From Candidatus Woesearchaeota archaeon (GTDB taxonomy: Archaea; Nanobdellota; Nanobdellia; Woesearchaeales; SKGA01), in assembly GCA_016926395.1 (NCBI GenBank), contig JAFGOT010000014.1, forward strand, positions 1 to 64,000: a stretch of 64,000 bases of DNA. Direction: 5' to 3'. Each line of letters begins with the position of its first letter. Within the stretch, counting starts at the first letter, position 1. Positions 1-21,763 of the stretch are shown here, in pieces. A program made the translations under genes and the position numbers. Under the pieces are notes generated by a model. It was not told where the DNA came from. It saw only the letters and a program-made list of their open reading frames with translations, and ran no database searches.

Positions 1-2643
1 AATGTTAATAATACTGTAACTACAAACTTTACGGTTAGAGATAGTATTGCTCCAGTAATTAACGACTATAATGCAACACCTCAAACTAATTATTACAATG
101 AAAACATTACTATTTTTGCTAACGTAACTGATAACGTTATGGTTAGTTCTGTTCTAGTTGAAATTTTAGGAATTAACTATAGTATGCAAAATATTAGTGA
201 TCAGATTTACAGATTTACATTCAATACAAACATTACTGTTCCTGGAACTTACAATTACACAATTTATGCTAATGATACTAGTGTCCCTGATAACTGGGCT
301 ATTTCACAAACTGGTAATTTTACAATTATAAAAGCAATTTCAGACATCCATCTTTTCTTGGATGGCTTCGAAGGCGACTACAGCATTAACGAAGATGTTC
401 TTTTGAACATTACATCTGTGCTAAACATCCCACCACTGCCTTCGGAGTTTATCCAACTTTACATCAATGGAACACTTAGCGGTAATGGAAGTAGTCCTGT
501 AACGAATACCACCACTTTCCAACCAGGATATTATAATGTGACTGCTGTTTATGTTGGAAACGAAAACTACACTGGAAGTAATGTAACTTACTTCATGCAA
601 ATTAATGACACCACAAATCCAAATGTGACAGTATTACTTCCAATAAATGGAACCATAATAAACGAATTAGATAATATCACCTTAGAACTTAACGTTACTG
701 ATAATGTTGCTGTTGATACTGTTCTTGCTAATGTAAGCTGGCACAACGGTTTAGAATTTGAAATTGTAATTTTATCAAATATTGGCGATATTTACAATTT
801 CACTTTCAGTAATACTAGTTTTATTGGTCTTTACAATATTACTTTTATCGCAAACGATACAACTGGAAATATAAATAATACTCAAATGGCTTATTTTATA
901 GTAAGAGACTCAACACCTCCAGTAATAAACAATTATAATGCAAGTCCAAATAGTACTGAATATGAGAACAACATCACTATCTTTGCTAATGTAACTGATA
1001 ATGTTAATGTTAGTGGTGTTTGGGTAGAGATTGAAGGATTAAATCATACGATGACTAATGTTGGAGATATTTATAGTTATGAATTTAACACAACAGATTA
1101 CAATGCAGGAAATTATACTTATTTCATATATGCTAATGATACTAGTGTTCCTGATAATTGGGCAATTAATGTAACAGGCAACTTTGAAATACAAAGAGCA
1201 ACAAGCATAATGCACTTATACTTAAATGGAACTGAAGATAATTATACAGTTAATGAAGATACTGACTTTAACATAACTGCAATATTACAAAAACCAAGTT
1301 TCCCACAAAACGTTCAAATTTATAAGAATGGATCTTTAATTGCAAATAGCAGTAGTCCTGTAACAAATATTTCACAACACCAACCAGGATTATATAACAT
1401 CACTGCAATTTACTTAGGAAACATAAATTATAGAAGCGTTATGATATCTTACTTCTTAGATGTATTAGATATTACTAATCCGGATGTTATTGCAGTCTTA
1501 CCAATATTAAATGACACTATTAATGAAACACTAAATGTGACAATACAAGCAAATGTTACTGATAATGTTGCTGTTGATAAAGTATTTGCGAATATCTCTT
1601 GGAATGGAACTTGGGAATGGTTAGAATTAGAACACCAAGGAGGAGAAATATATAATGGAACATTTAATAGAACTACTTGGATTGGACCATATCATGTACA
1701 ATTCTTTGCAAATGATACTAGTGGTAATATTAATGATACTGCTTGGACTAATTTCACAATTAAAAAAAGAAATGCTTACAACTTAACAGTTCAAGATATA
1801 ATATTTGATCCTGCAAATATAATTGAAGGACAAAATGTTACTATAAATTTACGAGTGAATAACTCAGGAGAATTAGATGCTAAAAACTTCACCGTTCAAT
1901 TAAACATAAGTTTCTTTAATGGAACAGTAACTCAAGTTCAAACATTAAATTATACTCATCTGAATTTAAGTGCATTTAGTGAAATGGATGTTAACTTTAC
2001 GTGGATTGCAAAACTGGGAACATATATTTTTGATGCTTACGCAGATGCGGAAGATAATGTAACAGAAGAGAATGAATTGGACAACAATAGAACTGAAAAT
2101 TATACTGTAAGTATTTGGCACACTCTTTATGGTGATTATGATTATGACTTTGTTTTAACTGCATCTCCAAAAGGAGATGTGATGGTTTGGAACGGAACTA
2201 TTCCTATGGGTGTTGCTTATTACTCTGATGCTGATGCAAATTATAGTCTTGATGATCTAGAACCTCTAGAAGCTAACACTTTCATATATGCCGATATGGC
2301 ATTAGGTGTTCAAGGATTCCTAGATTCAATAAGTAAAACTTATGATGTTAATAATAATGGTATTGCTGATCAAATGAAAACAATTGTTGTCGATGGTCGA
2401 ACAGTAAATAATGTACCTTACGTTCTTTCAACCAACTCAACTAATTTCATAACTGCGGTAATGTATGATAGTGCGGATGGAGTTGGTTTTAATGGAACTC
2501 AAGATTTAGTGTTTGTAACTGAGATAAATGCTGAAGCAGCGGGTGCTTATGGAACATATGACTTTGAAATAAAAATACCAACCGTACTACAAAATGTAAC
2601 AGGAGGAACAAATGCAGTTAGACGAATTGATGACGTTTATTAA
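1..2643 (+). CDS. Large surface glycoprotein, 5'-truncated: tandem Ig-like repeats + CARDB-like domain + C-terminal putative filament-subunit domain
   Basis: Frame 1 is open from base 1, so the ORF-track start at 139 is internal. Repeated ANVTDNV and IYANDTSVPDNWAI motifs, very dense N-x-S/T sequons, a CARDB-like segment (YNLTVQDIIFDP...GQNVTINLRVNNSG...DAEDNVTEENELDNN), and a C-terminal ~175 aa clearly homologous to the C-terminus of 14386-18237. Confidence 0.8.
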   Translation, partial: NVNNTVTTNFTVRDSIAPVINDYNATPQTNYYNENITIFANVTDNVMVSSVLVEILGINYSMQNISDQIYRFTFNTNITVPGTYNYTIYANDTSVPDNWAISQTGNFTIIKAISDIHLFLDGFEGDYSINEDVLLNITSVLNIPPLPSEFIQLYINGTLSGNGSSPVTNTTTFQPGYYNVTAVYVGNENYTGSNVTYFMQINDTTNPNVTVLLPINGTIINELDNITLELNVTDNVAVDTVLANVSWHNGLEFEIVILSNIGDIYNFTFSNTSFIGLYNITFIANDTTGNINNTQMAYFIVRDSTPPVINNYNASPNSTEYENNITIFANVTDNVNVSGVWVEIEGLNHTMTNVGDIYSYEFNTTDYNAGNYTYFIYANDTSVPDNWAINVTGNFEIQRATSIMHLYLNGTEDNYTVNEDTDFNITAILQKPSFPQNVQIYKNGSLIANSSSPVTNISQHQPGLYNITAIYLGNINYRSVMISYFLDVLDITNPDVIAVLPILNDTINETLNVTIQANVTDNVAVDKVFANISWNGTWEWLELEHQGGEIYNGTFNRTTWIGPYHVQFFANDTSGNINDTAWTNFTIKKRNAYNLTVQDIIFDPANIIEGQNVTINLRVNNSGELDAKNFTVQLNISFFNGTVTQVQTLNYTHLNLSAFSEMDVNFTWIAKLGTYIFDAYADAEDNVTEENELDNNRTENYTVSIWHTLYGDYDYDFVLTASPKGDVMVWNGTIPMGVAYYSDADANYSLDDLEPLEANTFIYADMALGVQGFLDSISKTYDVNNNGIADQMKTIVVDGRTVNNVPYVLSTNSTNFITAVMYDSADGVGFNGTQDLVFVTEINAEAAGAYGTYDFEIKIPTVLQNVTGGTNAVRRIDDVY

Positions 2644-2742
2644 ACGACTGGATTGTAGAACTCCCTTAGATAGTGGTAACAACATATTTATAAACGAAAA
2701 AAGGCAGATAGAATGTTAACTTTACTAAAAAAGAGGCGCAGG

Positions 2743-3414
2743 ATGACAAATTTACTTAGAAGCGACTTTATTCGGCGATTTTTAATAACTTCACTAATTA
2801 TTATGCTTCTTTTAACTTCATTCCCTTTAGTAATGGGAGAGGATCCCACAACTATTTCTACAAACAGTTTAGATGTTCAAATAGGCACTATACATCAACT
2901 ACAAGTAACGATTGGAGAACCTGTTATAATGTATCAAGAGATACATGTTAGTAATATAAAAAACAAAACAATAAACTCAACAATTGTGCTATCTGATTAT
3001 CCTGACTTAATACCTGAAGTTTATTTGAATGAATATATTTCTTTATCAATAAGTTCTGTTGGTACGATTCAATCTGCGCAACCAGTGTTACCAATCGTCT
3101 TAGGTCCATATCAAAGTAAAGATTTCATACTAGAATATGAGTTTGTCCCTGTTTACAAGGATGTAATTTGTAAAGAAACAACTATACAAGATTATCTTCC
3201 AGAAGATGCAATAATTCTGCCTTCATCACTACCTCCCGAAACAGTAATTGAAAAAAAATGTAATGTAAAAATACACCACGATGGAGATATTCATTATTAC
3301 AATATAGAAATTACTCTGGAAGAATTTGAAGGAGAACAAATAAAATCAATATACTATGTCGAGGGAGATGAATACTTAAAATTAGAAAATGGAGTTATAT
3401 CTTTAACAAAATGA
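2743..3414 (+). CDS. Secreted/membrane-anchored hypothetical protein
   Basis: Hydrophobic N-terminal segment (FLITSLIIMLLLTSFPLVMG). The second ATG (2743) follows a GAGG motif; the ORF track starts at 2713. The stop overlaps the next start (ATGA). Confidence 0.65.
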   Translation: MTNLLRSDFIRRFLITSLIIMLLLTSFPLVMGEDPTTISTNSLDVQIGTIHQLQVTIGEPVIMYQEIHVSNIKNKTINSTIVLSDYPDLIPEVYLNEYISLSISSVGTIQSAQPVLPIVLGPYQSKDFILEYEFVPVYKDVICKETTIQDYLPEDAIILPSSLPPETVIEKKCNVKIHHDGDIHYYNIEITLEEFEGEQIKSIYYVEGDEYLKLENGVISLTK

Positions 3415-5036
3415 AACTAAATAACTACTTCAAAATAACTTTTATGTTTTTAGTAGTTCTAACTCTAGTTCCTTTTGTTTTAGCGGCTGCTCCTGTTGAT
3501 ATTGAAGCAGGGCATTCTTATTATGTCGAACTTGATGCAACGATGGGAACTCTAAATTGGGCAGGAGCAGAAGTTTCTCTTAGTAGCGTTCAAATTCCAG
3601 AAAGTCGTTTCCCTATAACTGCTCCAATGACTCTGGCAACACCTATGATATGGAAACCAACATTTCCAGGTGGAAATTTTGCTGATGATCACCATTATTT
3701 TGCAGCGATGTTTCCAAACCAATTTGATTTAAACAATGTACACGATATGACGCCGGCAGACTTAGCAATAAACGGAATATTCTCTGCAGCTGATTATCCT
3801 CAATTTTATCCAGATTATTTGACTAAGAAAGATGCTCCAGATAAAACATTAGTTGAACAGTCAACAATAATGATTGGAGGTCAAAATTATACATCTTATA
3901 GGGTTCTTCTTGTAAACAATATTTATATGCACGTCTTAAAATATGAAGAAAGTCCAGGAGTTTTTAGTCCTCTGTTTTTAGTGAAGTTAGAACCGGCTAC
4001 TTGTTTTACAGGAGCTTCATGTTTTAGCGAGTTCCTGCTGCCGGTTTCTTCTCGATCATACAATTTTTATGCATTAAGCGATTTACCCCAATATAGTTAT
4101 AGGGTTTGGATTGATGGTGTTGAAACAAATTATTTCCCTCAAACAGGATTGCCTCACGAATTAACTTTTGAGGTTACAAATATTTTTACTGACTCTGCTC
4201 AGCCAAATGCGAAAATTTTTGTAGGTGAAGAAGATGGCCAAAACTTATTCTTACCAAAAAGATTAAGCGGATATGTTACTGAAGCATTTTCTGTTGGCTC
4301 GACAGATGCTTCTGGAATGGAAACATTTATTGTAACGCCAACAAAATACGGAACAATTGATGATTACAAAATACATTATGGGGTGTTCTTTGGAACTGCA
4401 ATAACTAGTCCTAGAGAATTGAATATTACTTCATCAACTACTTTAGTGCAGCAGAAAAAAACATTCACACAACCAGGCCTTACAAATAATCTAAAAGTTG
4501 CAGTTAATGCAATGAACTCTATATCTGATTATCTTTACAGGTGGGCTGATTCAAACAAAGCTTTGATGTGGGGAATAAATTATGATGTTGGATCAGGAGT
4601 ATTTACAACTTATGATGATGGATCTCCAGGTCCTATCACTCTAAAAACAGGAGCAGTAAATGTTATTGACTTTGATGTTAAACTAGGTGCTGCTTCACTT
4701 CCAAATTATCAAGTAAGAGTAAAAGAAGGAGATGGTTATTTAGTTATGAATCCTTACACTGGTTCATCGCCATTAACACAAAAAACAAGATCTCATTATC
4801 AAGTAGTTGACAGTCCAACACAACTAATAGTCACGCCTACTACTTACAATGATGTATCATCAACAATATCTGTGGATATAATTGATCCCTCATTTCAAGT
4901 AATTAATACGTATGTATTTGCAGTAGATGCAAATTTAGAAGATCCTGTAGGGAGTTTCTTTAGCAACAACTTACTAAAAACAATATCTGTTGCAATGAAA
5001 CAAATACTAAGTTCGATGTTTTACTCATTGAACTAA
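3411..5036 (+). CDS. Secreted protein: N-terminal diverged filament-subunit-like domain + module shared with the next gene
   Basis: Sec signal peptide. IEAGHSYYVELDATMGTLNWAG and EFLLP...YNFY resemble the 236/227-aa proteins. IDG..FP..P..F.V.N..NA..E..G..L..P..TD..G..F..PT is shared with 5091-6881. Confidence 0.7.
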   Translation: MKLNNYFKITFMFLVVLTLVPFVLAAAPVDIEAGHSYYVELDATMGTLNWAGAEVSLSSVQIPESRFPITAPMTLATPMIWKPTFPGGNFADDHHYFAAMFPNQFDLNNVHDMTPADLAINGIFSAADYPQFYPDYLTKKDAPDKTLVEQSTIMIGGQNYTSYRVLLVNNIYMHVLKYEESPGVFSPLFLVKLEPATCFTGASCFSEFLLPVSSRSYNFYALSDLPQYSYRVWIDGVETNYFPQTGLPHELTFEVTNIFTDSAQPNAKIFVGEEDGQNLFLPKRLSGYVTEAFSVGSTDASGMETFIVTPTKYGTIDDYKIHYGVFFGTAITSPRELNITSSTTLVQQKKTFTQPGLTNNLKVAVNAMNSISDYLYRWADSNKALMWGINYDVGSGVFTTYDDGSPGPITLKTGAVNVIDFDVKLGAASLPNYQVRVKEGDGYLVMNPYTGSSPLTQKTRSHYQVVDSPTQLIVTPTTYNDVSSTISVDIIDPSFQVINTYVFAVDANLEDPVGSFFSNNLLKTISVAMKQILSSMFYSLN

Positions 5037-5090: not shown

Positions 5091-6881
5091 ATGAAATTTA
5101 AAAAAATGTTTGGAGTCTTTTTGATAGCAATATTAACTTTGTTATCGTTGTCGTTAGTTATAGCAGATACGTCAGCATTTAAGAACAATGCTGGAGCAAC
5201 ACAATCGTTGTATTATACAGGAACTAGTCTAAACCCAGGTAACCTTTTCGCAGATGCTATCACTCCAAACCAAGATATAAAAATAGAAGTATGTGATTTT
5301 GATCCTCAATTTGTTGGTGGTTTTTATGCATTAAATGCAAGCGGAACATGGTATAATGCTTTAGTATCTTATTCTACAAGTACGAATGCTTTAGCAGCAA
5401 CAACAAACAGCGGCGGTGCTTGTTATCAAACACTGCCTAGTGCTTTAACAGTTTCTCCTTCTAACTTAGTTCCATTTGGGGGACAACCAGATCCTGAAGT
5501 ATTCAAAGCAGCACTTCCAGGAAATTTATTTATTGGTTATGCTGGAAGCGTTAATCCGGGGGCTGCAATAAATGGATTTGTTACGCCATCAGGTAACACA
5601 AGACTTTTAGGAAGTTATAATATTGATAGACAGTTTGACCAAGTAACTCGAGTTATAAGTTTTCAAGGAACCCCGCAAGTAACATTTCAAACAAATCCTG
5701 GATCTTTTTCAAAACCAATAAATGATCCTGTTTATGGGATAAGTGCTGAAAGACCTGCAGTATTTGGTGTTTGTGATGATAGTTATGGGGTAGAATGTTC
5801 AGATGGGGCTCTTCTTAATTCTGCAACATTTAACGATATGGATACTGGGCTTAATCCATCACAAGTAAATGATCAAAGTGTTCACACAAAATATGTTGTA
5901 TTAAATGGACTTGGTTATGATGTTTGTATTGGAGCTAATCTAGGTCCTCAAATAAATACAATCGATCCTGATCCTGTATATTATAGTCAAGATTTAGAAG
6001 TGAATATTACTTTAACAAACAATAGAATTGGAACAAAAGATCAATATGGTGGAAATGTTGATGTGACAAATAACTTTGATGTTTTATTTGAAATTTATCC
6101 GCAAGGGCAACCATCCAATTTAACATTTAATGCAACTTTTAGAGTTAGTGATAATTTAGTTCCAATGGGAAGTTATTTTGCAAGTTTAATTTGGCCAGCA
6201 TATGCTCACAGTGGTATGTATACTGCAAGAATTACTGTTGATGTTGCAGATGAAATTGCTGAATGTGTTGAAACTGATAATATTGTAACGATGAATTTTG
6301 AGCTAAGACCAATAACGATACCAACATTTGTAATTGATGGAATTTCAAGAACTAATTTTCCTGTAGCAAATGTTCCTTATAATGTGTCTTTTCATGTAGA
6401 AAACTCTGATGGAGATGTATTAAACAATGCTGAAGTGATAATGAAGGAAGTAAATGGTTTAACACTAAGTGCACCAACACAAATATTTAATCGAACAACA
6501 GATGAATTTGGTTCAATAGAAAAATCTGGTGTAATTGCAACAAATGAAGCAAAATTCTACACTGATTATTACGGTAATGCTAACTTTGTTTATATTCCAA
6601 CATATAACAAATTATATTTGCCACAATATGGTTACACAAATATTGGTGATTATATAGGGCCTTATAGTTTATCAATGTATGGAACACAAGGCGATGGAAC
6701 GCCTTTTAAATTCGTTGTGAGTGGGGATTTGCTTGATGAGTTTCCATTAGGAATACAAGATTACACTGCAACACAACCTTATAGTTTCAAAGGAATAATG
6801 AACTCAAGAATTGTTTCTCAAGTAATGGACTTTATGTACCAAACATACTCTCATTTCTTGAAAGTAATAAAGATAAACTAG
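5091..6881 (+). CDS. Secreted protein with CARDB-like domain and C-terminal module paralogous to 3411-5036
   Basis: Signal peptide, Cys pairs, CARDB-like motif (SGMYTARITVDVADEIAECVETDN), amphipathic C-terminal helix. Confidence 0.7.
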   Translation: MKFKKMFGVFLIAILTLLSLSLVIADTSAFKNNAGATQSLYYTGTSLNPGNLFADAITPNQDIKIEVCDFDPQFVGGFYALNASGTWYNALVSYSTSTNALAATTNSGGACYQTLPSALTVSPSNLVPFGGQPDPEVFKAALPGNLFIGYAGSVNPGAAINGFVTPSGNTRLLGSYNIDRQFDQVTRVISFQGTPQVTFQTNPGSFSKPINDPVYGISAERPAVFGVCDDSYGVECSDGALLNSATFNDMDTGLNPSQVNDQSVHTKYVVLNGLGYDVCIGANLGPQINTIDPDPVYYSQDLEVNITLTNNRIGTKDQYGGNVDVTNNFDVLFEIYPQGQPSNLTFNATFRVSDNLVPMGSYFASLIWPAYAHSGMYTARITVDVADEIAECVETDNIVTMNFELRPITIPTFVIDGISRTNFPVANVPYNVSFHVENSDGDVLNNAEVIMKEVNGLTLSAPTQIFNRTTDEFGSIEKSGVIATNEAKFYTDYYGNANFVYIPTYNKLYLPQYGYTNIGDYIGPYSLSMYGTQGDGTPFKFVVSGDLLDEFPLGIQDYTATQPYSFKGIMNSRIVSQVMDFMYQTYSHFLKVIKIN

Positions 6882-6893: not shown

Positions 6894-9452
6894 ATGAACA
6901 AAAAAATTAAAATCTTTTTATTTTTGTCAGTTTTACTATTGTTAAATATATCTTTAGCAAGTGCTCTTATTAGTTCAAGATTTGTTGATGTAAATGGAAA
7001 CCCAGTTGATAACCTGATTTATGATCGATCTAACACTTCATATAATACAACTGAAAATAATGTTTCTTTTGTAGCTGGTTATTATGGGAGTGATTCATAC
7101 ATGGATGATTCTGGTTCAAATCCAAATTTATTTTTAGAAGTTTGTCATCCAAATTTAACTTTAAATGACAAGATTGATTTGGTTTATGCAACTGAGGATC
7201 GAAAGAAATTAACTTCTGTATTAACCATGTTACCTGAAATTAGCTCTTATAATTCTTATGGCATAGGTAATGACACATATCAATGTGCAACTGTAGATGT
7301 TGATTTATCAGGAATGTTTGCTTTATACCCGGGTCATGTACTAACTCATATTATTCCTAATGGGACTGTTTATGACTATAATAATTTTGATAGTAGTTTT
7401 GGAACTTATCTTTTACCATTAAATGATTTGTTTTTTAATGGAAGTTACAAAGTAGGTGTGAGTATTCAAGGACCTCCAAAAGTTTATTATTTTTCTGTAG
7501 TTGAAACATTTGATCAATATGGTATTCCATTTACAAGGTCAGCTAATCAATTAATGACTAGTTTTTTAAGAGGAAATGGGTCTGTAATATCAACTAATAA
7601 ATTAACTCCTTCAGAAACATTTACGTATCCTGGAGAGATTGTAGGTGGAGAAACGGTTTATGTAAATGGCTTATTGGCTTTGGAATTGAAAGTATATGAT
7701 CCTTGTTCGCCAATAAATGATACGGGTTACTACATATTAAATAGTTCTGAGTTTTCTTTAACTGAAGATTGTATTCTTGTTAATAGAACAGATAATGTTG
7801 TAATTAACTTTGCAGGAGAAGTTATTGATGGAGATGGCGATGAAACCAACGGAAGTAAAGTTGATGAAAAGTGTTCTGTAAGAATAGAAGATTCTCAAAA
7901 TGTTACTTTAGAAAATTTCTTCGTACAAGATTTTTATTATGGTCTTTGTGTAAAAAACAGTACAGTGCTTGTATATGGAACGGGTGCTTACAATAACTAT
8001 CAAGGTGCTAAAATTTATCTTGGAAGTAATGTAAAATTAGTTGATTTAGATTTGATGAATAATGATTCTGAAATAAAATCATTTTATAATTCAACAGTTG
8101 AACTAGTGGATGTTAACTTTACAACAGCTCATCTAAAAGCAGATATACGAGATGCTATGGTTAAAGCTGTTCCTGTGCCTCCGCCAAGTTTACAACAACT
8201 AAATATATCTACTAATAGTCGAGACATAAACCAATATATTCAAGTAAGTAACATGAGTGTTAACAACTCTTATGCACAAATAAGTTTTTATTATACTGAT
8301 CCTATGCCTAATAAAGTAACAGTTAACAATATTAGTATTTACAAATATAATGGTTCATTTTACAAACAAAACGACACTGTTTACATCGTTAATGGAACTC
8401 CTTACCTCGCAAATGGAGATATGTGGGCAAATGGTAATTGGACAAAACTATTCACAACAATTTCTCCATCTGAGAGCTTAATATTAGGTCCAATGTTAAC
8501 CAGTTTTTCTGTATTTGCACCATTTGGGTATTCTACTCTATCAGAAGGAGAAGACCAGCCTGGTGATGGAACAACAGCTGGAACAGTGCCAAAACCAGAA
8601 CCTGATCCTCAACCAAAACCAGAAGCAGGTTCAACACAAGGTGGTGGAGGAACTCCTGCTAAGACTCAATATAGAGATATATTTGAAGTTGGTCCATTAA
8701 AACCTATTGTTATACAACTTGACATCCCAAAAAACGTTACTTTAATGCAAGGAGAAGCAGGCGAGGTTATATTTAATATATCTAACTTGGGAGATGGTGT
8801 TCCTGATATTTTAACTGTAGGTCCAAAAGTCTTGAATGGTTGGGAACATACAAACAGCACCATATATGAGCTGTTACCTGATGAAACTCGAATGGGTTCA
8901 TTTATGATTGCACCTTATGAAAAACAAAAACCAGGAACGTATCAAGTTCCAATACATGTTTGGCTTCCATCTGATGGTGAAGATGTAACTTTAGTAAAAC
9001 AATTTATGGATGTAACTGTCATACCAAGAGGGGACTTGAAACGAATTAGGGTTGAGGAGTATCCTCCAGAAATTCAAGCTACACCTTTCTCTGAGCAAGA
9101 AATATCCTTTAACATAAAAAACATTGGAGACGCTCCACTAGATCACATTATTGTAAAATTAGATAGTTCAAATTGTTTACTTGATATACAAGGAAATGAA
9201 CAAAAAATAAAAGTAGGTTCATCTGGGCAAGTAACTTACAAGTTCTCATTTGCTGATAAAGGAGATTGTGATTATAACTTAAAATTCTATGATGGATCGG
9301 ATTTGATTGGTTTTGTACCTTTAAAAATCAGTGTTAGTGATAAATTCACAAAAGAAGAATTGATTAAAATATCTATAATGACTATAATTGTTATTGGATG
9401 GACTGCATTAAGTGTCCTAATAATCTCAAGAAGAAGAAAACAGGTGGCTTAA
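6894..9452 (+). CDS. Membrane-anchored surface glycoprotein (beta-helix-like segment, PGF-pre-PGF-like domain, Pro-rich linker, Ig-like domains, C-terminal TM)
   Basis: Signal peptide; beta-helix-like stretch (VRIEDSQNVTLENFFVQDFYYGLCVKNS); SFSVFAPFG motif; PKPEPDPQPKPE linker; C-terminal hydrophobic helix followed by SRRRK. Confidence 0.7.
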   Translation: MNKKIKIFLFLSVLLLLNISLASALISSRFVDVNGNPVDNLIYDRSNTSYNTTENNVSFVAGYYGSDSYMDDSGSNPNLFLEVCHPNLTLNDKIDLVYATEDRKKLTSVLTMLPEISSYNSYGIGNDTYQCATVDVDLSGMFALYPGHVLTHIIPNGTVYDYNNFDSSFGTYLLPLNDLFFNGSYKVGVSIQGPPKVYYFSVVETFDQYGIPFTRSANQLMTSFLRGNGSVISTNKLTPSETFTYPGEIVGGETVYVNGLLALELKVYDPCSPINDTGYYILNSSEFSLTEDCILVNRTDNVVINFAGEVIDGDGDETNGSKVDEKCSVRIEDSQNVTLENFFVQDFYYGLCVKNSTVLVYGTGAYNNYQGAKIYLGSNVKLVDLDLMNNDSEIKSFYNSTVELVDVNFTTAHLKADIRDAMVKAVPVPPPSLQQLNISTNSRDINQYIQVSNMSVNNSYAQISFYYTDPMPNKVTVNNISIYKYNGSFYKQNDTVYIVNGTPYLANGDMWANGNWTKLFTTISPSESLILGPMLTSFSVFAPFGYSTLSEGEDQPGDGTTAGTVPKPEPDPQPKPEAGSTQGGGGTPAKTQYRDIFEVGPLKPIVIQLDIPKNVTLMQGEAGEVIFNISNLGDGVPDILTVGPKVLNGWEHTNSTIYELLPDETRMGSFMIAPYEKQKPGTYQVPIHVWLPSDGEDVTLVKQFMDVTVIPRGDLKRIRVEEYPPEIQATPFSEQEISFNIKNIGDAPLDHIIVKLDSSNCLLDIQGNEQKIKVGSSGQVTYKFSFADKGDCDYNLKFYDGSDLIGFVPLKISVSDKFTKEELIKISIMTIIVIGWTALSVLIISRRRKQVA

Positions 9453-9453
9453 A

Positions 9454-9789: not shown

Positions 9790-10218
9790 TTAAGCTCGTT
9801 GAAGAGAAAGAATAATTGTTCTGATTCTTTTTTGAAGTTCACTAATTTCTTCTTTGTTTAAATCTTGACCACGATAAGATATTTTAATCATATCTTCAAA
9901 GAAATCCATTAATATTTTTCTAAAGTTTTTATCCATATTAACATGGTTAAGTTCATTAGCTATTTCTGCAAAAGAATCTGCTTCAATATTAAACTTCATC
10001 TTTGTTTTTTCAAAAATTTGCTTAGCTAATTTGTCAAGGTTGTGAAGAGAACCATCTGCAAAAGCATTGTTTAATTTGTTGTCTATAACTACATCTGAAA
10101 TTTCATGACTTAATTTATCAAACGATTCCTCTAATTGATTCATACGTTTCCAAAAATAATACCCGATACCACCTGCAGCACCAAGCGCTACGATGGAAAT
10201 TACAGTTGCAATAGACAC
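9790..10218 (-). CDS. Hypothetical single-pass membrane protein (helical cytoplasmic domain)
   Basis: GTG start 5 nt after GGTG; N-terminal TM helix; last gene of the MoxR-DUF58-vWA run. Confidence 0.65.
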   Translation of the reverse strand: MSIATVISIVALGAAGGIGYYFWKRMNQLEESFDKLSHEISDVVIDNKLNNAFADGSLHNLDKLAKQIFEKTKMKFNIEADSFAEIANELNHVNMDKNFRKILMDFFEDMIKISYRGQDLNKEEISELQKRIRTIILSLQRA

Positions 10219-11300: not shown

Positions 11301-12199
11301 ATTTCCACCGTCTCTCCACCAAGGGCTTTAATAAATGCAGTTCCGAACTCTTCACCTGTAGTGATTTTAAAGCAAACTTGTCCGTACTGTTGGAATGTGT
11401 CTTTAATGTATTTTTCTTGAGCTTTAGCCATAACCTCATATTCTTTTCTAACTTTATCAACATCAGAAAGAATAACTCTGCCTGTATGAGGATCTTTAAG
11501 ATACATTTTACCAACTCCTTTAGGAAGTTGACTGTCGGTTGGATCTCGAACCATTATACCAAAAACTTTTGTGAATTGACTTGCTAGTTCTGGAAGGAAT
11601 CTTTCAGGATGTGTATCAACAAAGTCAGACACAATAAATATGATTGAATCGTTTTTGTAATTTGCTAACAGCTCATCACTTAAATTATCCCAATCTTTAA
11701 TTCCACCATATTGTTTGGAATCAGTAAGTCTGTTAATTAGTTGAACGTAATCTCCATCCGCTTCAGTAAGATTTGCTTTGTTTTTAGCAAATGTTCCTCC
11801 ACCTACTTGATCGCCAGCATCAACTGCGGCATATGCAAGAGTTCCTGCAACCAAAGCACCAAATTCATTCTTTGTCATTTTATGCGTTCCAAGAAGCATT
11901 GAATTAGAAACATCGAGAATAATAATAATATCAAATACCCTTTCTTCTTTGAAAATTCTAGTGTATAATTTTCCAGTTCTTGCGAAAACTTTCCAATCAA
12001 GACGTCTTACATCATCTCCGGGAACGTATCTTTTCATATCGTAGAATTCTAAACCTCGACCAGAAATAAGTTGATAATAAAGAAGATTTAGACGAAAAAA
12101 CTCTGCTAGAAGACCTGCTTGTTTAGCAACTTCTTTCATAAGACCGTCAAAACTAAACGTATTAACAATAGGTTGATTACTTTTAGTGCCGGACGCCAT
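11294..12199 (-). CDS. DUF58 family protein (vWA-like MoxR partner)
   Basis: GRGLEFYDMKRYVPGDDVRRLDWKVFAR signature; LDVSNSM; adjacent to MoxR. Confidence 0.9.
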   Translation of the reverse strand: MASGTKSNQPIVNTFSFDGLMKEVAKQAGLLAEFFRLNLLYYQLISGRGLEFYDMKRYVPGDDVRRLDWKVFARTGKLYTRIFKEERVFDIIIILDVSNSMLLGTHKMTKNEFGALVAGTLAYAAVDAGDQVGGGTFAKNKANLTEADGDYVQLINRLTDSKQYGGIKDWDNLSDELLANYKNDSIIFIVSDFVDTHPERFLPELASQFTKVFGIMVRDPTDSQLPKGVGKMYLKDPHTGRVILSDVDKVRKEYEVMAKAQEKYIKDTFQQYGQVCFKITTGEEFGTAFIKALGGETVEIY

Positions 12200-12253
12200 T
12201 CTTCATCTTAAAACATCAATGACAAAAATACTTTGTCTTGATTTTATACTTTT

Positions 12254-14385: not shown

Positions 14386-17300
14386 ATTCGTCAAAAAAGA
14401 GCAGGTAAATTATTTAGTAGTCTGTTGTTAGCTTTAGCGTTATATCTTTTGATATTCGCTCCAATAACAACAGCGACACAACTTGGCAATTCTTCTAATC
14501 AGACTTATCAATATTCAAATTTAACTCTTTCTCCAATCCTTGGAATGGTGGTCGATTGGCCAACATTAAACAACGCGCTAAACAACAATGAATTAGAACC
14601 AACCCAAATAATTCTAAACAATACTAATCAAACAGTTATGTGGTCAAGTAGTGGCACACTAACAACTACTTCTGTAGAAGAAATCTTAGCATCAATAGAA
14701 AACTATGAAAGTTTAACTTATTATGTGGACTATGATCAAAGAATTCTCTTAAACCAACCTAGCTATGTAATTACAACAGAAGATGTTTATGTGCCATTAA
14801 CCACGGACTTAAAAAAAGAAATTTTCAAAGATGGAAACACAACCCTTGAAGTTTCCTTAATTGAAAATGAAACACAAATAGTAATCGAGGCTAATTTTAG
14901 TGATGAAAATGGATTAATCTCTGGTCTTAATTCTTTTTGTGAATTACGAGAAAACTCAACTGGTCAATGGGATAGTAATTTCATGAACGTTAAAGATGTT
15001 TATTTCTACCAACTCGCAATTGGAGACTCTTTTATGTATGAAGTTACTTGCCAAGACTTGAATACAGAAAAAAAACTCTCTGCAGTATCAACTTACCAGA
15101 AGAACATTGTTTCTTCTGGTGAGGGGGAGTTACAATCAAAAACAATCGAAGAAGAATTTGATTTAGGTGATAATTCTAAACCTATACTTGTTGAAGATTT
15201 GTATATTAATTTAACTGATGATTACTTTAATAATGCTGATACGAATGTAACAAAGCCAAGAGAAAATAAGACAAGTTTAGATGTTACTTACGTTTTCGAT
15301 GATTCCAATGTCGTGCTAAGCGCGGAATATTTAAATTCTGATGGTACTTCTTTGGTTGGATTAAATTCTTTTTGTGAAATAAGAGAAAATTCAACTAATG
15401 TTTGGAGTTCGCCATATTACTTATTCTATGATGATCTGGTAAAAAAATATCAAACAAGCATATCCAAACAAAATGATTTCTGGGCACAAGTGAGTTGTTT
15501 TACAAACAATGTTGGAGAAGAAAATCTAAGTACAATTAAAATAATTGAAACCAAAACAAACAAAATAGAAGAATCCTATTTATCAGAAGAGTTAATTGGA
15601 TTTACAAATGATACAAACCACAGTTCTCAAACACGTTTTGGAATATTTAATTTAGAAACTCCAAGCGGAATAATATCTGACTTTACAGTTGATGAAGATT
15701 TGAACATTGCATTTAGAATTGATAATTTAACTCATGGGCAAAAATTATCTGTAGATTTAACTCTTCCAATTCCAATTCCACAAAATCAACATATTTACAT
15801 TTGGAAAAAATTAAGTGGAACATACAAAGAAGTTCCTTATGATATTTCTGATTCTAGAAAAAAATTAACACTCCATCTTCAAGATGGACTAATTGATGAT
15901 GACGAAGAAGTAAATGGCGTTATCGTTGATCCTTTCCAACTAATTTTTACGGATGAAAGCACAGAAGTGACAGCGACATCTTCCCAAAGCTCCCTCATAG
16001 CTTTGGAGTCTAACCAACTGGATGTCGTAATTAACAAAGGGGTTTTAGGGGAGGTACTTGTGGTGGATCCAAATAACCTGCCGGTGACACCGCTCCCTCC
16101 TCGCTCTTTTGTTACCAACCTGCTAAAACTTAACATATCTAGTTTTGATAGCGAAGGTGTCGATGTTACTTTCAAACACAGCGGTCCACTTGTGGACCCT
16201 GTAGTTTGGAAATTCAATCCGAACAAATTTGAATGGTATGTGATGCCACACACAAGAATAGATGATTCAACAATTTCAATTCACATCGTGGATGGTGGAC
16301 TTGGAGATGATGATGGACTTAAGAATGGAGTAATAATCGATGATGTTGGTATAGTTCAATCAGAAACAAGACTTAACATAAGTGATGATTCAGATGCTCA
16401 AACAATATTACAAAATGAAACGATTGGTTTCTATGCAAACTACACTAATGCAACATCTGATGCGCCTTATCTTGGAGCTAATTGTGTGTATGCAGAAAAC
16501 ATTACTGGAACTTGGAATGCAAGTTCAATGACATATAATCTTACAAGTGGATTATATGAATACTATTCAAACTTTAGTAATTTTGGAACTTATTATTACA
16601 AAATAAACTGTTCACAAGAAAACGCAACAACGATAGAACTAAATGAAACATTCACAATAAGTCGAACACCTCTTGCAACCGATGCAAATTATTCAAGTTT
16701 CTCTGGAAGTACAACAGAATTTAATTTGGAGAGTGATATTTCAAATGTTTCTGGAGCAATAATTGAAAATGTTGGTTTTGGAAAAATAGAATGGAACAAC
16801 CCAATAAATGCAACGAGTCAAGACTTTAATAATAATATAGTGATAAGTAATAATTATGTGTTTGTAAATAGTAGTGCACTAAACTCTAATATTAATTCAT
16901 CGGCAAATGTAACGATGAGTGGTCTTACTTGGACAATCCCTATCATATATAGAGATGGAGTTGAATGCTCGACTTGTAATGTTTTAAGTTACTCTGCAGG
17001 AACTTTGGTCTTTAATGTAACTGGATTTTCAACTTACACGACTGGACCTCAAACAAATCTAAGTATAAATGATACAACCGATATAACTTCCAGATATGAA
17101 GGTCAAAACATAACATTCTATGCTTATTATACAAATATAACTTCAGGTCTTCCAATAACGGGAGCTGGAAGTGAATGTAATTTCACAGAAAATAGTTCTG
17201 GTTCTTGGTCTGCAGATCAGACTATGAGTTACAACAATAATGGTTATTACGAATTAAACAAAACGTTTGCAACAAATGGAACTTTCAACTTTAATGTAAG

Positions 17301-18237
17301 TTGCGTTAACACACAAGGATATGCAAACCTTACAACAACAGATACATTTACTGTTGAACCTCGCCCAACAAGAGAATTATATATTACAGATGTAACTTAC
17401 TCTAATAATAATCCAAATGAAAACGAACTTGTAACTGTAACAGTAAACATGTCTAATATTGAAACTGCAAATGCAACTAATTTTACTGTAGAGATGAATG
17501 TAAGCTTATGGAATGGAACTGATAAAATTTATGTGGGAACAAACACTAGTTTACTTGTAGATGTTAATGCAAGTTCTTGGAATACTGTTGACTTTACATG
17601 GAATGCGAGTTTAGGACTTACAATCTTTGACTTTTATATTGATACTCAAAACAACGTAACTGAATTAGACGAAACAAACAATATTTTTACTAAAAACATC
17701 TCAACAAATTCATGGGTGACTTTCTATGGAAATCTATCGACTAATGTTGTTCTTGGTGATTCATCAAATAAAGTAATGAAAAATTGGACTGCTACTCCTT
17801 GGGGAGTGATGTTGGTGTCTGATGTTGATGCAAGTTATGTCGTGGGTGACTTAGTTGCATTAGATGCTACCGGTGATTTGGCAAAGCTTGATATTGCCCT
17901 GAAAATGACTGGATTTGAAGATAGCATCTCAAAACTTTATGATTCAAATGATGATGGAGATGCTGATTTAACAACAACTATTAATCTAGTTGGAAATACT
18001 ATAAACAATGTCCCTGCGTATAAAATTGGTTCTAGTGATTTTATAACAGGAATACTTTACGATTCATCAGATGGAGCTCCTTATGATGGTAGTCAAGATG
18101 TTGTATTTGTTGTAGAAATTAATTCAACAGGTACTGGAGCTTATGCGAATGTTGATTATGAGCTTTACTTCCCTGCGCTTCTTAGAAGTTCAAAAGTTGG
18201 TTCTGATATTGTCGAGTACCAAATAAACTTTGACTAA
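14386..18237 (+). CDS. Giant surface glycoprotein: Cys-pair Ig-like modules, two choice-of-anchor-U-like domains, CARDB-like domain, C-terminal putative filament-subunit domain
   Basis: Four modules with C-x(3-4)-EN-x-(T/S)G/N-x-W. Two DG(L/G)xxDxD(E/G)xxNGVI(V/I)D motifs. C-terminal domain homologous to that of ORF 1-2643. The ORF track starts at TTG 14425; ATT 14386 gives a complete signal peptide. Confidence 0.8.
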   Translation: MRQKRAGKLFSSLLLALALYLLIFAPITTATQLGNSSNQTYQYSNLTLSPILGMVVDWPTLNNALNNNELEPTQIILNNTNQTVMWSSSGTLTTTSVEEILASIENYESLTYYVDYDQRILLNQPSYVITTEDVYVPLTTDLKKEIFKDGNTTLEVSLIENETQIVIEANFSDENGLISGLNSFCELRENSTGQWDSNFMNVKDVYFYQLAIGDSFMYEVTCQDLNTEKKLSAVSTYQKNIVSSGEGELQSKTIEEEFDLGDNSKPILVEDLYINLTDDYFNNADTNVTKPRENKTSLDVTYVFDDSNVVLSAEYLNSDGTSLVGLNSFCEIRENSTNVWSSPYYLFYDDLVKKYQTSISKQNDFWAQVSCFTNNVGEENLSTIKIIETKTNKIEESYLSEELIGFTNDTNHSSQTRFGIFNLETPSGIISDFTVDEDLNIAFRIDNLTHGQKLSVDLTLPIPIPQNQHIYIWKKLSGTYKEVPYDISDSRKKLTLHLQDGLIDDDEEVNGVIVDPFQLIFTDESTEVTATSSQSSLIALESNQLDVVINKGVLGEVLVVDPNNLPVTPLPPRSFVTNLLKLNISSFDSEGVDVTFKHSGPLVDPVVWKFNPNKFEWYVMPHTRIDDSTISIHIVDGGLGDDDGLKNGVIIDDVGIVQSETRLNISDDSDAQTILQNETIGFYANYTNATSDAPYLGANCVYAENITGTWNASSMTYNLTSGLYEYYSNFSNFGTYYYKINCSQENATTIELNETFTISRTPLATDANYSSFSGSTTEFNLESDISNVSGAIIENVGFGKIEWNNPINATSQDFNNNIVISNNYVFVNSSALNSNINSSANVTMSGLTWTIPIIYRDGVECSTCNVLSYSAGTLVFNVTGFSTYTTGPQTNLSINDTTDITSRYEGQNITFYAYYTNITSGLPITGAGSECNFTENSSGSWSADQTMSYNNNGYYELNKTFATNGTFNFNVSCVNTQGYANLTTTDTFTVEPRPTRELYITDVTYSNNNPNENELVTVTVNMSNIETANATNFTVEMNVSLWNGTDKIYVGTNTSLLVDVNASSWNTVDFTWNASLGLTIFDFYIDTQNNVTELDETNNIFTKNISTNSWVTFYGNLSTNVVLGDSSNKVMKNWTATPWGVMLVSDVDASYVVGDLVALDATGDLAKLDIALKMTGFEDSISKLYDSNDDGDADLTTTINLVGNTINNVPAYKIGSSDFITGILYDSSDGAPYDGSQDVVFVVEINSTGTGAYANVDYELYFPALLRSSKVGSDIVEYQINFD

Positions 18238-18424: not shown

Positions 18425-18433
18425 TGTACAACA

Positions 18434-19132
18434 ATGAAAAAATTAGTAATTTTGATGGCGCTTATTGCAGTGTTATCAATAGCTACTGCTTTAGCTCTAG
18501 AGCCTGGGCAAGCATCTATCTCCACAACAGATTTAGGGGAATATGTTAACGCAACAGCAGATACTTTAGACGCAACTGGCGGTACAATATTTGACGTAGA
18601 TGTAAGTGCAACAACAGGTACAATCCGATGGTCTGGTATCTCGGGTACAGTAACTGGTAACATTGTATTAGGGGATAACACTGGTACAATTATGTACGAT
18701 TGGGGTTCTGCAACTCCTATAGCAGTTTATGCTACATTAAACACAGATGCTATTAACTGGGACTCTGGTTTAGTGGCAGGTAACGAAGTTAATTTCTTAA
18801 CTGACTTCCCATACTTAACTGCAGCAAACGCTCCAAACGACAATTACAATACTACCTTCACAGGTACTTTAAGTATGGACACAGATGTTAATTCTAACAT
18901 GTTCACGCCTACTTGTCCTTCTGTATTAACAGATGACAACTCTGCGGCTTACTGGCCTACTTTACACTGTGAAGACGCTACAGGTCAACCAGTAATGGTT
19001 GGTGAAGTTGATTCAGCAGTTCACGCTAACTATGCAGGTGTGAATGTTAATTACCAAATGATTGTTCCAGAACTTGGCGGTCAGGGTAATGAAGCAGCAA
19101 CTTCATGGGACCTATGGGTTGAACTAGAATAA
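18434..19132 (+). CDS. Secreted putative major filament subunit (uncharacterised family)
   Basis: ATG 18434 lies 9 nt after GAGGTG; signal peptide. Motifs GGTIFDV, RWSGISGTVTGNIVLGD..G..MYDW, NYQMIVP, WDLWVELE. Has its own promoter and terminator. Confidence 0.75.
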   Translation: MKKLVILMALIAVLSIATALALEPGQASISTTDLGEYVNATADTLDATGGTIFDVDVSATTGTIRWSGISGTVTGNIVLGDNTGTIMYDWGSATPIAVYATLNTDAINWDSGLVAGNEVNFLTDFPYLTAANAPNDNYNTTFTGTLSMDTDVNSNMFTPTCPSVLTDDNSAAYWPTLHCEDATGQPVMVGEVDSAVHANYAGVNVNYQMIVPELGGQGNEAATSWDLWVELE

Positions 19133-19168
19133 GCCGATTATTGGCTTTTATTTTTCTTTTATTTTTTT
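19131..19168 (+). terminator. Hairpin + long T tract after the 236-aa gene
   Basis: AAGCCGA-TTA-TTGGCTT stem followed by about 20 nt that are almost all T. Confidence 0.6.
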
Positions 19169-19240
19169 AATTCTTTTACAAAAGGTTTTTAAAAAGCCAA
19201 GTTACAATAAATATATATTTTAAGCTCAAGGTGTGATTGA

Positions 19241-19924
19241 ATGAATAAATACGGATTGTTAGCATTGATTTTGACGGTGTTAATAATTTCAACATCAATA
19301 GCAATCGCAGCTCCAACAGGAGGATTGCTTACCATTCTATCCACTGAAAGAGGATCTGATTCTGAAGCACAATCATTTACCACACAAGGAGGTAATGTGA
19401 CTGAAGCAACGATTGTAGGACGTGTAATAACTGATAGATGGGCTGGTTTTTATGGTTCTGCAACAGGACAAATATTTGCAGGAGACGGTTCTGGTAATAC
19501 TTATTTTCAATGGACTACAGTTGATATGACTGATGGTGTAATCTACGCAAGCGATGGCCAAGTTAATGATTGGTTAAATCTAAGACCTGCTGTAGTTGGC
19601 GATATGCCTGGATTTGTGCAAGGCGTCGCAACAGATAACTTTGCAGCAACATTTTCCTCAACAGAAGTTTTTGATAGTGCATCACTAACAATTCCTGCAA
19701 CTCCTTACGCTCTTTCTTGGCAGAATATCTCTGGAACAGCAGGTGTAGGTAATCTAAGGACATACGCTCTTCATGATGATAGTGATGGAAATAATATCTT
19801 TGCAGGTAAAATAATTGATGATGCTGCTTCTTTTGCAGGTGGAGAAACTGTCGATTACCAAATAATTGTTCCAGCACAAACTGCGGTTGACACAACTTAC
19901 TGGTTCTATTTAGAGATGCCTTAA
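19241..19924 (+). CDS. Secreted paralogue of the 236-aa protein (second subunit)
   Basis: Signal peptide; GGNVTEA, RWAGFYGSATGQIFAGDGSG..YFQW, VDYQIIVP, YWFYLEMP; GGTG RBS. Confidence 0.75.
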   Translation: MNKYGLLALILTVLIISTSIAIAAPTGGLLTILSTERGSDSEAQSFTTQGGNVTEATIVGRVITDRWAGFYGSATGQIFAGDGSGNTYFQWTTVDMTDGVIYASDGQVNDWLNLRPAVVGDMPGFVQGVATDNFAATFSSTEVFDSASLTIPATPYALSWQNISGTAGVGNLRTYALHDDSDGNNIFAGKIIDDAASFAGGETVDYQIIVPAQTAVDTTYWFYLEMP

Positions 19925-20017
19925 TATGTTTTAATGCTTATTTTATGATTGTTATTTTTAACGAAACGTTTATAAATTAGGTTTCTTCTTTTCAAACATA
20001 GGGGAAAGGTAATTAAC

Positions 20018-21763
20018 ATGGTTAATAAATTAGGTTTTATTCTATCAATTCTAGTCTTAATTCTACTATCATCAAGCTTTGCATTAGCAGAAGATGTTTA
20101 TTTGGTAAATTCTGAAAATTGGGTTGATGTTTATAGTGGGATGTTATCTTCAGGACTTGAAGGTGGAAGAGGATTTTTTATTAACTCAGAAACAATAACT
20201 GGACTAACTCAAGTAATATCCGAAGATGATACAATCCACCTTTACCAATCAGAACTGGCTCCTTTTATTCCTAATCTTGATTCTCAACTAAGTTCCTTAG
20301 GATATGATGTTGAAGAGAGATTAATTTCTAATAATATGAACAGAGACTTGGACCCAAAAACAGGTAATTATTATTTAGTATCTCTTGACAATCCAAGAAT
20401 AACTTCTAGTCTTGCACCTCTGGCAATAAAAGAGAATGCATGGGTTTTAGTTGTTGATATTGAAAATGTTGATGAAATAGTAAACAAAATATCAAATGCA
20501 CAAGATGTAGTTGCAGTGGGTAAATTTCCACGAGACGTTCTTGTAAAAATACAACCATATCTTGATGAACACATTGTTAATGACGATATTTACAAAGACA
20601 GTCAAGCAATAGCTGACAAGTTAGGAGATTCGCAAAATTATGTGTTAACTGACGGGGCTTTCATTGAATCCGAATTTTTCTTAACAAAAAATCCTGTTCT
20701 TCTAACTGGAACAAATAAAATATTAACTCACACATTCAACTATTTACAATCAAAAGACGCAAAAGCAGTTGTATTAGTTGGAAACGAACTTAGTGTTGTA
20801 GGCGAACAAATAAGAACACAAAGTAACAAAGAGATTAGCGTGTTTGTTAAATTCGGTCAAGGCGACACCGGAGAATCTGGAAAGGTTTATGCTCTTTCAA
20901 CATTCCCTCTGCCTGGTTTAAGAATTGGTCTTGTCGCTCAACAAGCAATATATGATCCATCAACTAAAGAATTAATTGTTACATTCAAAAACATTGGTAA
21001 CTCTGGAATTTATGAGTTAACAAATTTACAGATAAAAAATGACGAGGAAGAGTTAGCAACAACTGCAGGAAACGAAATAACCTTTATTGCTGCAGGAGAA
21101 TTACTTCCAATGGTATTTCCAATGGATATTGATTTAGCTTATGTTACTGACGAAACAACAGTTGATCTTTACACCACATTTGGATTAAGCCCAAAAGAGC
21201 TTGATACTTTCTTAACAATGCCTAATCGTTACACTCCGCCTTACACAATGCCTCTAACAGTAAAAGAAATAGAAGATGATGATTCTGTATTATATGTTGA
21301 AGACTCTTCATATTATCAAAATCTAAACAGAGTAGGTGTTGCTATAACAAATCCAGGAGACAAAGAAGTTTATTTCACTATAAAAGTTCAAGACATAATA
21401 GTTAACGGTCTAAAAACAACATTATCAAAAGAAGATTCTATAAAACCAGGAGAAACAAAAAAAGTTTATCTACCTGCAAAATTGGATCCAATAGACTTAG
21501 ATGATAACAGCATATTTGATATAGTAATTAATTATGGAAAACAACCAGAATTCCAATTCAAAGCGATAAGGGTAGAGCAACCATTTAAAGTAGTGAGTGG
21601 TGGTAGAATAACTGGCTTTGTAACTGGCCTTGGCGATGGCAAACCAGGAAATTGGGTTGCAATAATCGCTGCAGTGTTGGTTTTATTTGTACTTATTAGA
21701 ATTGTAAAACATAAGTCAAAAAAAGAAGAAATTAAAACTTCCACCAAAAAAAGTAGAAAGTAA
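20018..21763 (+). CDS. Membrane-anchored surface protein with cell-wall-binding-repeat-2-like N-terminal region
   Basis: Signal peptide; three alpha/beta units ending in motifs such as VVAVGKFP, PVLLTG and AVVLVGNELSVVG; Ig-like C-terminal half; TM helix and basic tail. The CWB2 resemblance is by eye only. Confidence 0.55.
   Translation: MVNKLGFILSILVLILLSSSFALAEDVYLVNSENWVDVYSGMLSSGLEGGRGFFINSETITGLTQVISEDDTIHLYQSELAPFIPNLDSQLSSLGYDVEERLISNNMNRDLDPKTGNYYLVSLDNPRITSSLAPLAIKENAWVLVVDIENVDEIVNKISNAQDVVAVGKFPRDVLVKIQPYLDEHIVNDDIYKDSQAIADKLGDSQNYVLTDGAFIESEFFLTKNPVLLTGTNKILTHTFNYLQSKDAKAVVLVGNELSVVGEQIRTQSNKEISVFVKFGQGDTGESGKVYALSTFPLPGLRIGLVAQQAIYDPSTKELIVTFKNIGNSGIYELTNLQIKNDEEELATTAGNEITFIAAGELLPMVFPMDIDLAYVTDETTVDLYTTFGLSPKELDTFLTMPNRYTPPYTMPLTVKEIEDDDSVLYVEDSSYYQNLNRVGVAITNPGDKEVYFTIKVQDIIVNGLKTTLSKEDSIKPGETKKVYLPAKLDPIDLDDNSIFDIVINYGKQPEFQFKAIRVEQPFKVVSGGRITGFVTGLGDGKPGNWVAIIAAVLVLFVLIRIVKHKSKKEEIKTSTKKSRK

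Follow-up and report, generated by a model that had tools for sequence, protein, structure and literature searches.

A candidate strand-complemented surface assembly in Woesearchaeota-type DPANN archaea, centred on a secreted domain shared by small and giant proteins

What do the secreted proteins encoded at the left end of contig JAFGOT010000014.1 of a Candidatus Woesearchaeota archaeon (assembly GCA_016926395.1) form at the cell surface? The stretch analyzed here, referred to as the window, is the 64,000-nucleotide (nt) contig C19 of a 1.0-Mb, AT-rich genome that is 82% complete. A preliminary description, made from the letters alone, had proposed that a 22-kb locus at positions 1-21763 encodes an undescribed extracellular filament system in which one secreted domain is reused five times. 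To our knowledge, little has been established about how DPANN archaea attach to their hosts, and annotation is lacking for most of their surface proteins. We describe the shared domain, found in two small proteins (p236 and p227) and at the ends of two giant proteins (giant A and giant B, or g1270), together with the membrane protein p581, which accompanies the small proteins across the phylum. Proteins are named by a length in amino acids (aa), and coordinates are collected in the table below.

The motifs and open reading frames (ORFs) of the preliminary description were all found where it had placed them. The sequences of p236 and p227 could be aligned over their whole length (BLASTP E 8e-12, 226 columns), and sequence comparison indicates that the two are paralogs within a large, unannotated archaeal family. 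Exhaustive phmmer searching gave 400 representative clusters of this family at E<=1e-3 (counted at 50% identity), mostly of 215-260 aa. Two long phmmer matches (P0079 and P0143, with 11-13 stretches) were taken as compositional because the family profile did not recover them. A profile built from 74 small-family members (A2) picked four of the 171 window ORFs, namely p236, p227 and the C-termini of g1270 and of the 880-aa fragment of giant A. The last ~165 residues matched in each giant (E 4.9e-13 over profile positions 61-210 for g1270; E 8.5e-7 over 62-211 for the fragment), and alignment of A2 with eight giant C-termini by hhalign extended through to the last strand (98.4%, E 9e-15). At the N-terminus of p541, the hidden Markov model search gave a weak match of 27 residues (E 0.013), and hhalign aligned aa 26-212 with profile positions 48-213 (92.5%, E 4.8e-7). 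Further copies were sought in p233, p596, p852 and p581 and rejected (hhalign 3-28%). Because of these profile and profile-profile matches, the count of five copies is correct, with four firm and the one in p541 probable. Neither Pfam nor NCBIfam gave a match for the small proteins, p541, p233 or p581, and the small-family profile matched no Protein Data Bank (PDB) sequence, in accord with the proposal that the domain is unassigned. The signal peptides were Sec-like on inspection, as had been stated, and the pilin-like ORFs at 54785-58759 had class III N-termini (KGQ, SGQ or KAQ followed by a hydrophobic helix).

The small subunits consist of a conserved N-terminal extension of ~40 aa followed by a core of ~170 aa. 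The A2 profile covered positions 1-230 in the small proteins and from ~46-67 to the end in the giants; the giants end in the same core, without the N-terminal extension. The extension is the best-conserved part of the small subunits, reading P-G-G-A-T..., then A-G-N-(I/V)-T...L.....T-x-R-W-A-G. Elsewhere in the phylum, three large proteins of 602, 629 and 2359 aa (L030:4392-6197, L031:2316-4202 and L032:1010-8086, in genomes G120, G198 and G262, respectively) carried a complete small-subunit sequence at the C-terminus, extension included (profile 27-229, E about 1e-56). Because these proteins end in the full domain, the donor-like segment may in some cases be internal. The 602- and 629-aa fusion proteins had no ATPase domain, and a KaiC-type ATPase gene lay nearby in G262 only.

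The AlphaFold2 model of p236, made from the 74-sequence alignment, had a predicted local distance difference test score (pLDDT) of 90.3 and a predicted template modelling (TM) score of 0.83. Foldseek searches with this model found no match in the PDB (best E 0.54) or among viral models (best E 0.34). A structure search of the ESM Atlas returned the protein's own archaeal family at TM scores of 0.76-0.86, followed by unrelated enzymes at no more than 0.30. Fold relatives of the p236 model were not found in these searches, including among TasA, CanA, thread subunits and capsid jelly rolls. The shared domain thus maps to no enzyme and no known lattice protein in the searches run, either of which the preliminary description had named as grounds for abandoning its proposal; we make no claim for the novelty of the fold itself.

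We then examined the relation between small and giant proteins by co-folding the C-terminus of giant B (CARDB plus shared domain, 286 aa, 8-row alignment) with mature p236. The pair reached an interaction prediction score from aligned errors (ipSAE) of 0.69 (0.67-0.70 in three runs), and the three controls all gave 0.00. Contact agreement between runs was at least 94%, with a partner pLDDT of at least 74. The ipSAE mark had been reached by 58 of 80 solved complexes and by 2 of 110 mismatched pairs, a calibration that is rough, since custom alignments were used. In the predicted interface, aa 38-72 of p236 (the extension) and patches of its core face positions 110-140 and 277-286 of the giant (A7 numbering), which are the conserved W...YG...LGD...W first strands and the last strand, and residues 60-71 of p236 pair in register with 119-126 of the giant. 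In both families, conservation is highest in the segments that form this interface, and the conserved residues there include G54, I/V56, T67, W70, G72 and G75 in the small family and W113, G118, L126 and W137 in the giants. Because the extension contacts both the first and the last strands of the giant, the small subunit is predicted to supply the giant's missing piece in trans. In the same model, the corresponding surface on p236 (aa 75-97 and 225-236) lies outside the interface, and a further subunit might bind there.

The p581 model (pLDDT 87.7) comprised an alpha/beta module (aa 25-272), two beta-sandwiches (300-420 and 421-525), a transmembrane helix (544-569) and a basic tail. The N-terminal module consists of three tandem alpha/beta repeats, as in the CWB2 triple module. 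Between it and the first sandwich lies a conserved segment, G-x-V-Y-A-L-T-x-F-P-L-P (aa 288-300), that was modelled with low confidence. The CWB2 Pfam model (PF04122) had no match on p581 and found nothing relevant genome-wide. Foldseek matches of p581 to transglutaminases, integrins and RbmA were not used as functional leads, being generic to tandem immunoglobulin-like (Ig-like) domains.

To see how widely these genes occur together, we surveyed related genomes. Among 41 relatives, the small family occurred in 14 genomes, 13 of which also had p581. The phylum was then sampled evenly, at 301 genomes; one of them, G258, is unpublished, and none of the conclusions rests on it. In this sample the small family was found in 88 genomes and p581 in 84; 82 genomes had both, 6 had the small family only, 2 had p581 only and 211 had neither. 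The positive genomes were scattered over 59 genera. A small gene lay within 2.5 kb of p581 in at least 34 genomes, often directly adjacent to it. Small paralogs numbered 2-14 per genome and were mostly in tandem, and p581 was usually single. The conserved synteny that the preliminary description had suggested looking for thus extends far beyond this genome. The same description had named p541 and p596 as adaptors and p852 and p581 as membrane anchors. Conservation bore out p581, which is the universally linked partner and not just one of two anchors; for p541, p596 and p852, detection was limited to a single genus. Four distant loci gave no match to genus-built profiles of p596 and p852. For p541, a partial match was seen outside the genus: its C-terminal two thirds (aa 224-542) recur, with E 2.6e-63, in a 4108-aa protein from another family of the order (G039:C1:491955-492869).

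The MoxR gene, proposed as a chaperone of the system, fared similarly. It lies in a contiguous minus-strand module that resembles the MoxR-DUF58-VWA (Bat-type) operons in having an AAA_3 MoxR, a DUF58 protein and a BatA-like VWA protein in the usual order, and differs from them in the MoxR itself, which has a Lys-rich, coiled-coil-like N-terminal extension of ~290 aa. This long form is the second MoxR paralog of the genome, which also has a generic one of 374 aa on contig C9, and generic MoxR genes occur in 34 of the 41 genomes. Copies of the locus MoxR with 72-78% identity were found in G002, G003 and G005 only, with weaker or fragmentary matches beside small genes in G006 (69% over 90 aa) and G009 (35%). 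The module was absent at the locus in G008 and at the loci of four other families. Because the long-form paralog is distinct from generic MoxR, the link to the system is real, as a dedicated gene within the genus, and it is confined to that genus.

Among described systems, the closest in organization are the WxL proteins of Bacillota. Their clusters encode small proteins consisting of the WxL domain only, large adhesins with a shorter C-terminal WxL domain, and a DUF916-DUF3324-transmembrane protein (PMC9772566, PMC10599100). A preprint of October 2026 describes the WxL/Elr system as a pilus formed by donor-strand exchange, in which the membrane-anchored two-Ig protein is the chaperone and the large protein is the tip; each small pilin combines the domain with a donor strand, the C-terminal domain of the large adhesin lacks the donor strand, and the system is confined to Bacillota as reported (10.64898/2026.10.17.759780). 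The archaeal locus resembles WxL/Elr of Enterococcus faecalis and the Csc/WxL clusters (also PMC1534035) in its small proteins made of a domain with an N-terminal strand, its large adhesin with a shorter terminal domain, its membrane-anchored two-Ig protein with a C-terminal transmembrane helix, its constant core of putative chaperone and pilin with variable tips, and Sec export. It differs in the extra CWB2-like module of p581, the ~40-aa length of the extension and the archaeal host. Pam pili of candidate phyla radiation (CPR) bacteria, described in 2026, have chaperones anchored in the membrane, and the proposed base is an RbmA-like protein of two domains (PMC13278184). They share with the archaeal locus an ultrasmall and probably host-attached organism and Sec-exported subunits. 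Their donor-strand exchange without an usher and their membrane-anchored chaperones would have counterparts in the predicted strand insertion and in p581, and RbmA is also among the p581 Foldseek matches. Unlike the archaeal subunit model, which is a single domain for which no Ig-like structure was matched, their pilins have two domains (a nine-strand sandwich and a truncated Ig); Pam pili are CPR-exclusive as reported, and they were set apart by description.

Sequence tests gave no kinship with WxL proteins. PF13731 (WxL) matched none of the 74 family members even at E<=10, nor anything in the whole genome, and PF06030 (DUF916) and PF11797 (DUF3324) had no relevant match in the genome. In the Atlas feature search, WxL was the nearest named cluster at 0.75, a value within the chance range, and WxL clusters were not among the results of the Atlas structure search. 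Inspection of the locus translations, short of a systematic search, brought up no LPxTG-type protein; archaea would not be expected to anchor proteins to peptidoglycan by sortase. Because the locus fails every sequence test and fold searches show no sign of shared ancestry, we filed it as working like the WxL and Pam systems, not as a member of either. By analogy, the archaeal locus appears to have the same division of labour as WxL/Elr and Pam pili. Of the preliminary description's word 'undescribed', the part that concerns the family holds, for the family is unnamed; the division of labour had already been published in 2026 (10.64898/2026.10.17.759780, PMC13278184).

Other systems are more distant. 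Chaperone-usher pili (Fim, Pap, Caf1) likewise have an incomplete fold completed by the N-terminal strand of a neighbour and an acceptor-only tip adhesin. Here, unlike in those pili, there is no outer membrane or usher, and, as far as the searches run go, the subunit does not have an Ig fold. A cell with one membrane would not be expected to have an usher. PapD-like chaperone and usher families had no Pfam match among the locus proteins at E<=0.1 and were absent from the p581 fold matches listed. Sulfolobus threads, Pyrobaculum bundling pili (of the TasA-like AbpA) and cannulae (CanA) are comparable in being archaeal, Sec-exported, non-type-IV and based on strand donation. In contrast to the CWB2 proteins of Clostridioides difficile (Cwp, SlpA), the p581 module occurs in an archaeon without peptidoglycan or PSII polymer and lies distal to two Ig-like domains and a transmembrane helix.

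These comparisons suggest a Sec-dependent cell-surface assembly of Woesearchaeota-type DPANN archaea that would be held together by strand complementation. We give about an even chance to the reading that the locus encodes a surface fibre or stalk that is built by strand complementation and displays giant adhesins, p581 being its chaperone and/or base. The extension of a small subunit would fit along the opening strands and the final strand of the core in the giant. As a small subunit carries an extension as well as a core, others could follow it head-to-tail, which would give a thin fibre or a short stalk whose distal end is the giant adhesin. The protein p541, with its domain at the N-terminus, may be built in as a payload-carrying subunit, and p581 would stay in the membrane as assembly chaperone and/or base anchor, as the two-Ig tethered proteins of the WxL and Pam pili do. 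The likely use would be attachment to host cells or surfaces. We infer polymerisation, polarity, the role of p581 and the biological function, and use the word 'filament' in that sense.

Several points weigh against the fibre. The fibre is proposed from gene content and predicted structures, the co-fold concerns one pair only, and its score is a model confidence and not a measurement. The extension has ~40 residues compared with the ~15-residue donor strands of known systems, and the predicted strand pairing is parallel. The AlphaFold2 monomer places the extension confidently (pLDDT about 90), so that it may sit in cis and not be free to donate. Acceptor-only giants are not universal, because some large proteins elsewhere keep the extension. 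The match of the p581 Ig-like domains to WxLIP is indistinguishable from that of generic Ig domains, and the CWB2-like module suggests that p581 binds glycan or wall, a trait as compatible with an anchor as with a chaperone.

In a second reading, the locus would encode a stoichiometric display complex: a giant would have its terminal domain completed by one small subunit and would thereby be docked on membrane-anchored p581, the shared domain being an anchoring module, as WxL, SLH and CWB2 were once viewed. We consider this rather unlikely, while recognizing that several observations fit it: the co-fold shows a 1:1 pair only, CWB2 is known to anchor surface proteins in Clostridioides, p581 mostly occurs as a single copy and adjoins small genes, and g1270 has choice-of-anchor domains, which are typical of interchangeable anchors. 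However, the 2-14 small paralogs per genome are many for few giants, many loci have small genes and p581 with no obvious giant nearby, and the small subunits have both donor-like and acceptor-like parts, which a simple cap would not need. An S-layer-type two-dimensional envelope seems improbable to us. The CWB2-like tiles of p581, as a canopy protein anchored at its C-terminus, would make up its lattice (compare the high-molecular-weight SlpA), with the small proteins as partners and the giants plugged in by the shared domain, yet only ~28% of the genomes sampled from the phylum were found to have the pair, as were 7-8 of 10-13 within the genus, the 581 aa of p581 contain no N-glycosylation sequon, and the small subunits form many divergent paralogs. 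The least probable account, to which we give very little credence, is that the small proteins are independent, secreted lectin-like binding proteins that do not assemble and have a domain in common with adhesins by chance, with a neighbourhood that reflects co-regulation only. It would suit proteins with no enzymatic or structural annotation whose genes each have their own Shine-Dalgarno (SD) sequence and T-rich terminator-like tract, but it leaves their near-perfect co-occurrence with p581 unexplained (8 genomes with one of the two), as well as a strongly predicted, asymmetric interface with the giant domain for which the controls gave zero.

Returning to the strand-complemented fibre, a broader statement is possible, and we advance it tentatively, as somewhat less than probable: about a quarter of Woesearchaeota-type DPANN archaea may build an unseen, usher-free, strand-complemented pilus whose subunit fold has no solved relative, assembled and held by a CWB2-Ig-Ig-transmembrane protein and bearing adhesin tips of up to >6000 aa. 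With this organelle the cells would reach a host and hold on to it, and it would stand beside the WxL and Pam pili as a third counterpart that evolved independently. If so, chaperone-type pili that need no usher would occur in archaea as well as in Gram-positive and CPR bacteria, on a different subunit fold, which would point to convergent solutions in single-membrane cells. Hundreds of 'hypothetical proteins' would gain names and roles, and an archaeal use of the CWB2 module would come to light. In any case, the results provide a testable kit of a small-subunit family, an almost obligatory membrane partner and giant adhesins that plug in by the same domain.

The genes of the locus lie on the plus strand in the order giant A tail, p233, p541, p596, p852, giant B, p236, p227 and p581, with the MoxR-DUF58-VWA-p142 module interposed at 9790-14089 on the minus strand and TruD at 21819 as the right border. 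The extent of 22 kb had been set too short, since the locus runs past the left end of the window onto contig C11. The ORF at 1-2643 encodes the C-terminal part of a giant, the first 5841 codons of which lie at the end of C11, and the last C11 repeats are 50-54% identical to the first repeats of this ORF. The assembly break thus falls inside a repetitive giant gene (G000 contig C11:44190-63760 plus window 1-2643), and the full giant A probably exceeds 6700 aa. It is preceded on C11 by a p581 paralog of 593 aa. In relatives, the gene order is p581-like, giant, p233, p541, p596, p852, (MoxR module), (giant), p236, p227, p581. Because of the C11 continuation and this same order in relatives, we read the locus as two modules, each with a p581-type gene, that reach ~20 kb past the left end of the window.

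Table. Features of the locus, with positions in the window
Feature	Position	Strand	Content or basis
Giant A, C-terminal 880 aa	1..2643	+	Ig-like/Big_7/DUF4625 repeats, CARDB aa 594-698, shared domain last (Pfam)
Shared domain copy 1, acceptor-type	2065..2640	+	without the small-subunit N-terminal extension; A2 profile, hhalign
p233	2713..3414	+	small secreted or membrane-tethered protein, family unknown; translation, relatives' gene order
p541	3411..5036	+	diverged shared domain N-terminal (nt 3486-4046, aa 26-212), then ~330 aa of unknown domains
p596	5091..6881	+	secreted, central CARDB (Pfam E 4e-5)
p852	6894..9452	+	secreted, Pro-rich linker, C-terminal transmembrane helix, basic tail; translation
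p142	9790-10218	-	142-aa protein in MoxR module
BatA-like VWA membrane protein	10314-11252	-	Pfam VWA 4.8e-20
DUF58 protein	11294-12199	-	Pfam 4.3e-35
Long-form MoxR AAA+	12254-14089	-	Pfam AAA_3 1.4e-55
Giant B (g1270), 1270 aa	14425..18237	+	Sec signal, two choice-of-anchor-U domains, weak S59-like segment, CARDB aa 985-1090, shared domain
Shared domain copy 2, acceptor-type	17653..18234	+	A2 profile, hhalign, co-fold
p236, small subunit	18434..19132	+	Sec signal, N-terminal extension (nt 18497-18628), core domain
p227, small subunit, p236 paralog	19241..19924	+	GGN(V/I)T sequon common in the family
p581, conserved partner	20018..21763	+	Sec signal, CWB2-like triple module, Ig-like 1, Ig-like 2, transmembrane helix, basic tail
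p581, CWB2-like triple alpha/beta module	20090-20833	+	
p581, Ig-like 1	20915-21277	+	
p581, Ig-like 2	21278-21592	+	
p581, transmembrane helix	21647-21724	+	

For p236, described as a 236-aa protein, the SD sequence GAGGTG at 18420 supports the ATG at 18434 as the start, which gives a length of 232 aa. Each small gene has its own TATA-like box and SD sequence, which suggests separate and possibly strong transcription. Sequencing runs listed for the locus included no RNA, but two DNA runs from one freshwater/sediment study that may be its source. T-rich terminator-like tracts were noted 3' of p236 (19133-19180, after a short GCC...GGC hairpin) and of p227 (19925-19960). Within the genus, p233 is kept 3' of giant A, and its stop codon overlaps the p541 start. 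A module of ~70 aa is common to p596 and p541 (BLASTP 5.6e-5). The giant A fragment has 8.4 N-glycosylation sequons per 100 aa and p852 has 3.4; orthologs of p852 were found in G002, G003 and G008.

Giant B carries two further segments of interest. At aa 770-833 (16732-16923) there is a weak match to the Nup98-type S59 autopeptidase (PF04096, E 0.02), and for the 629-aa G198 protein that ends in the full shared domain, the match to this family exceeded the cut-off set by Pfam (E 5e-7, 30.4 bits); judged from these matches, the S59-like segment may be a self-cleaving module in such adhesins. The two choice-of-anchor U domains lie at aa 561-644 (16105-16356; NF041766, E 1.4e-29). Such domains typically belong to surface proteins of bacteria in which the C-terminal anchor is interchangeable, and here they occur in an archaeal giant.

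Separate from this locus, the window contains at 54785-62413 four small ORFs whose N-termini are of class III (type IV pilin-like), and after them an ORF for a VWA protein of 893 aa. Within the same stretch, the ORF at 55547-57343 encodes an amino-acid permease fused to a methyltransferase domain.

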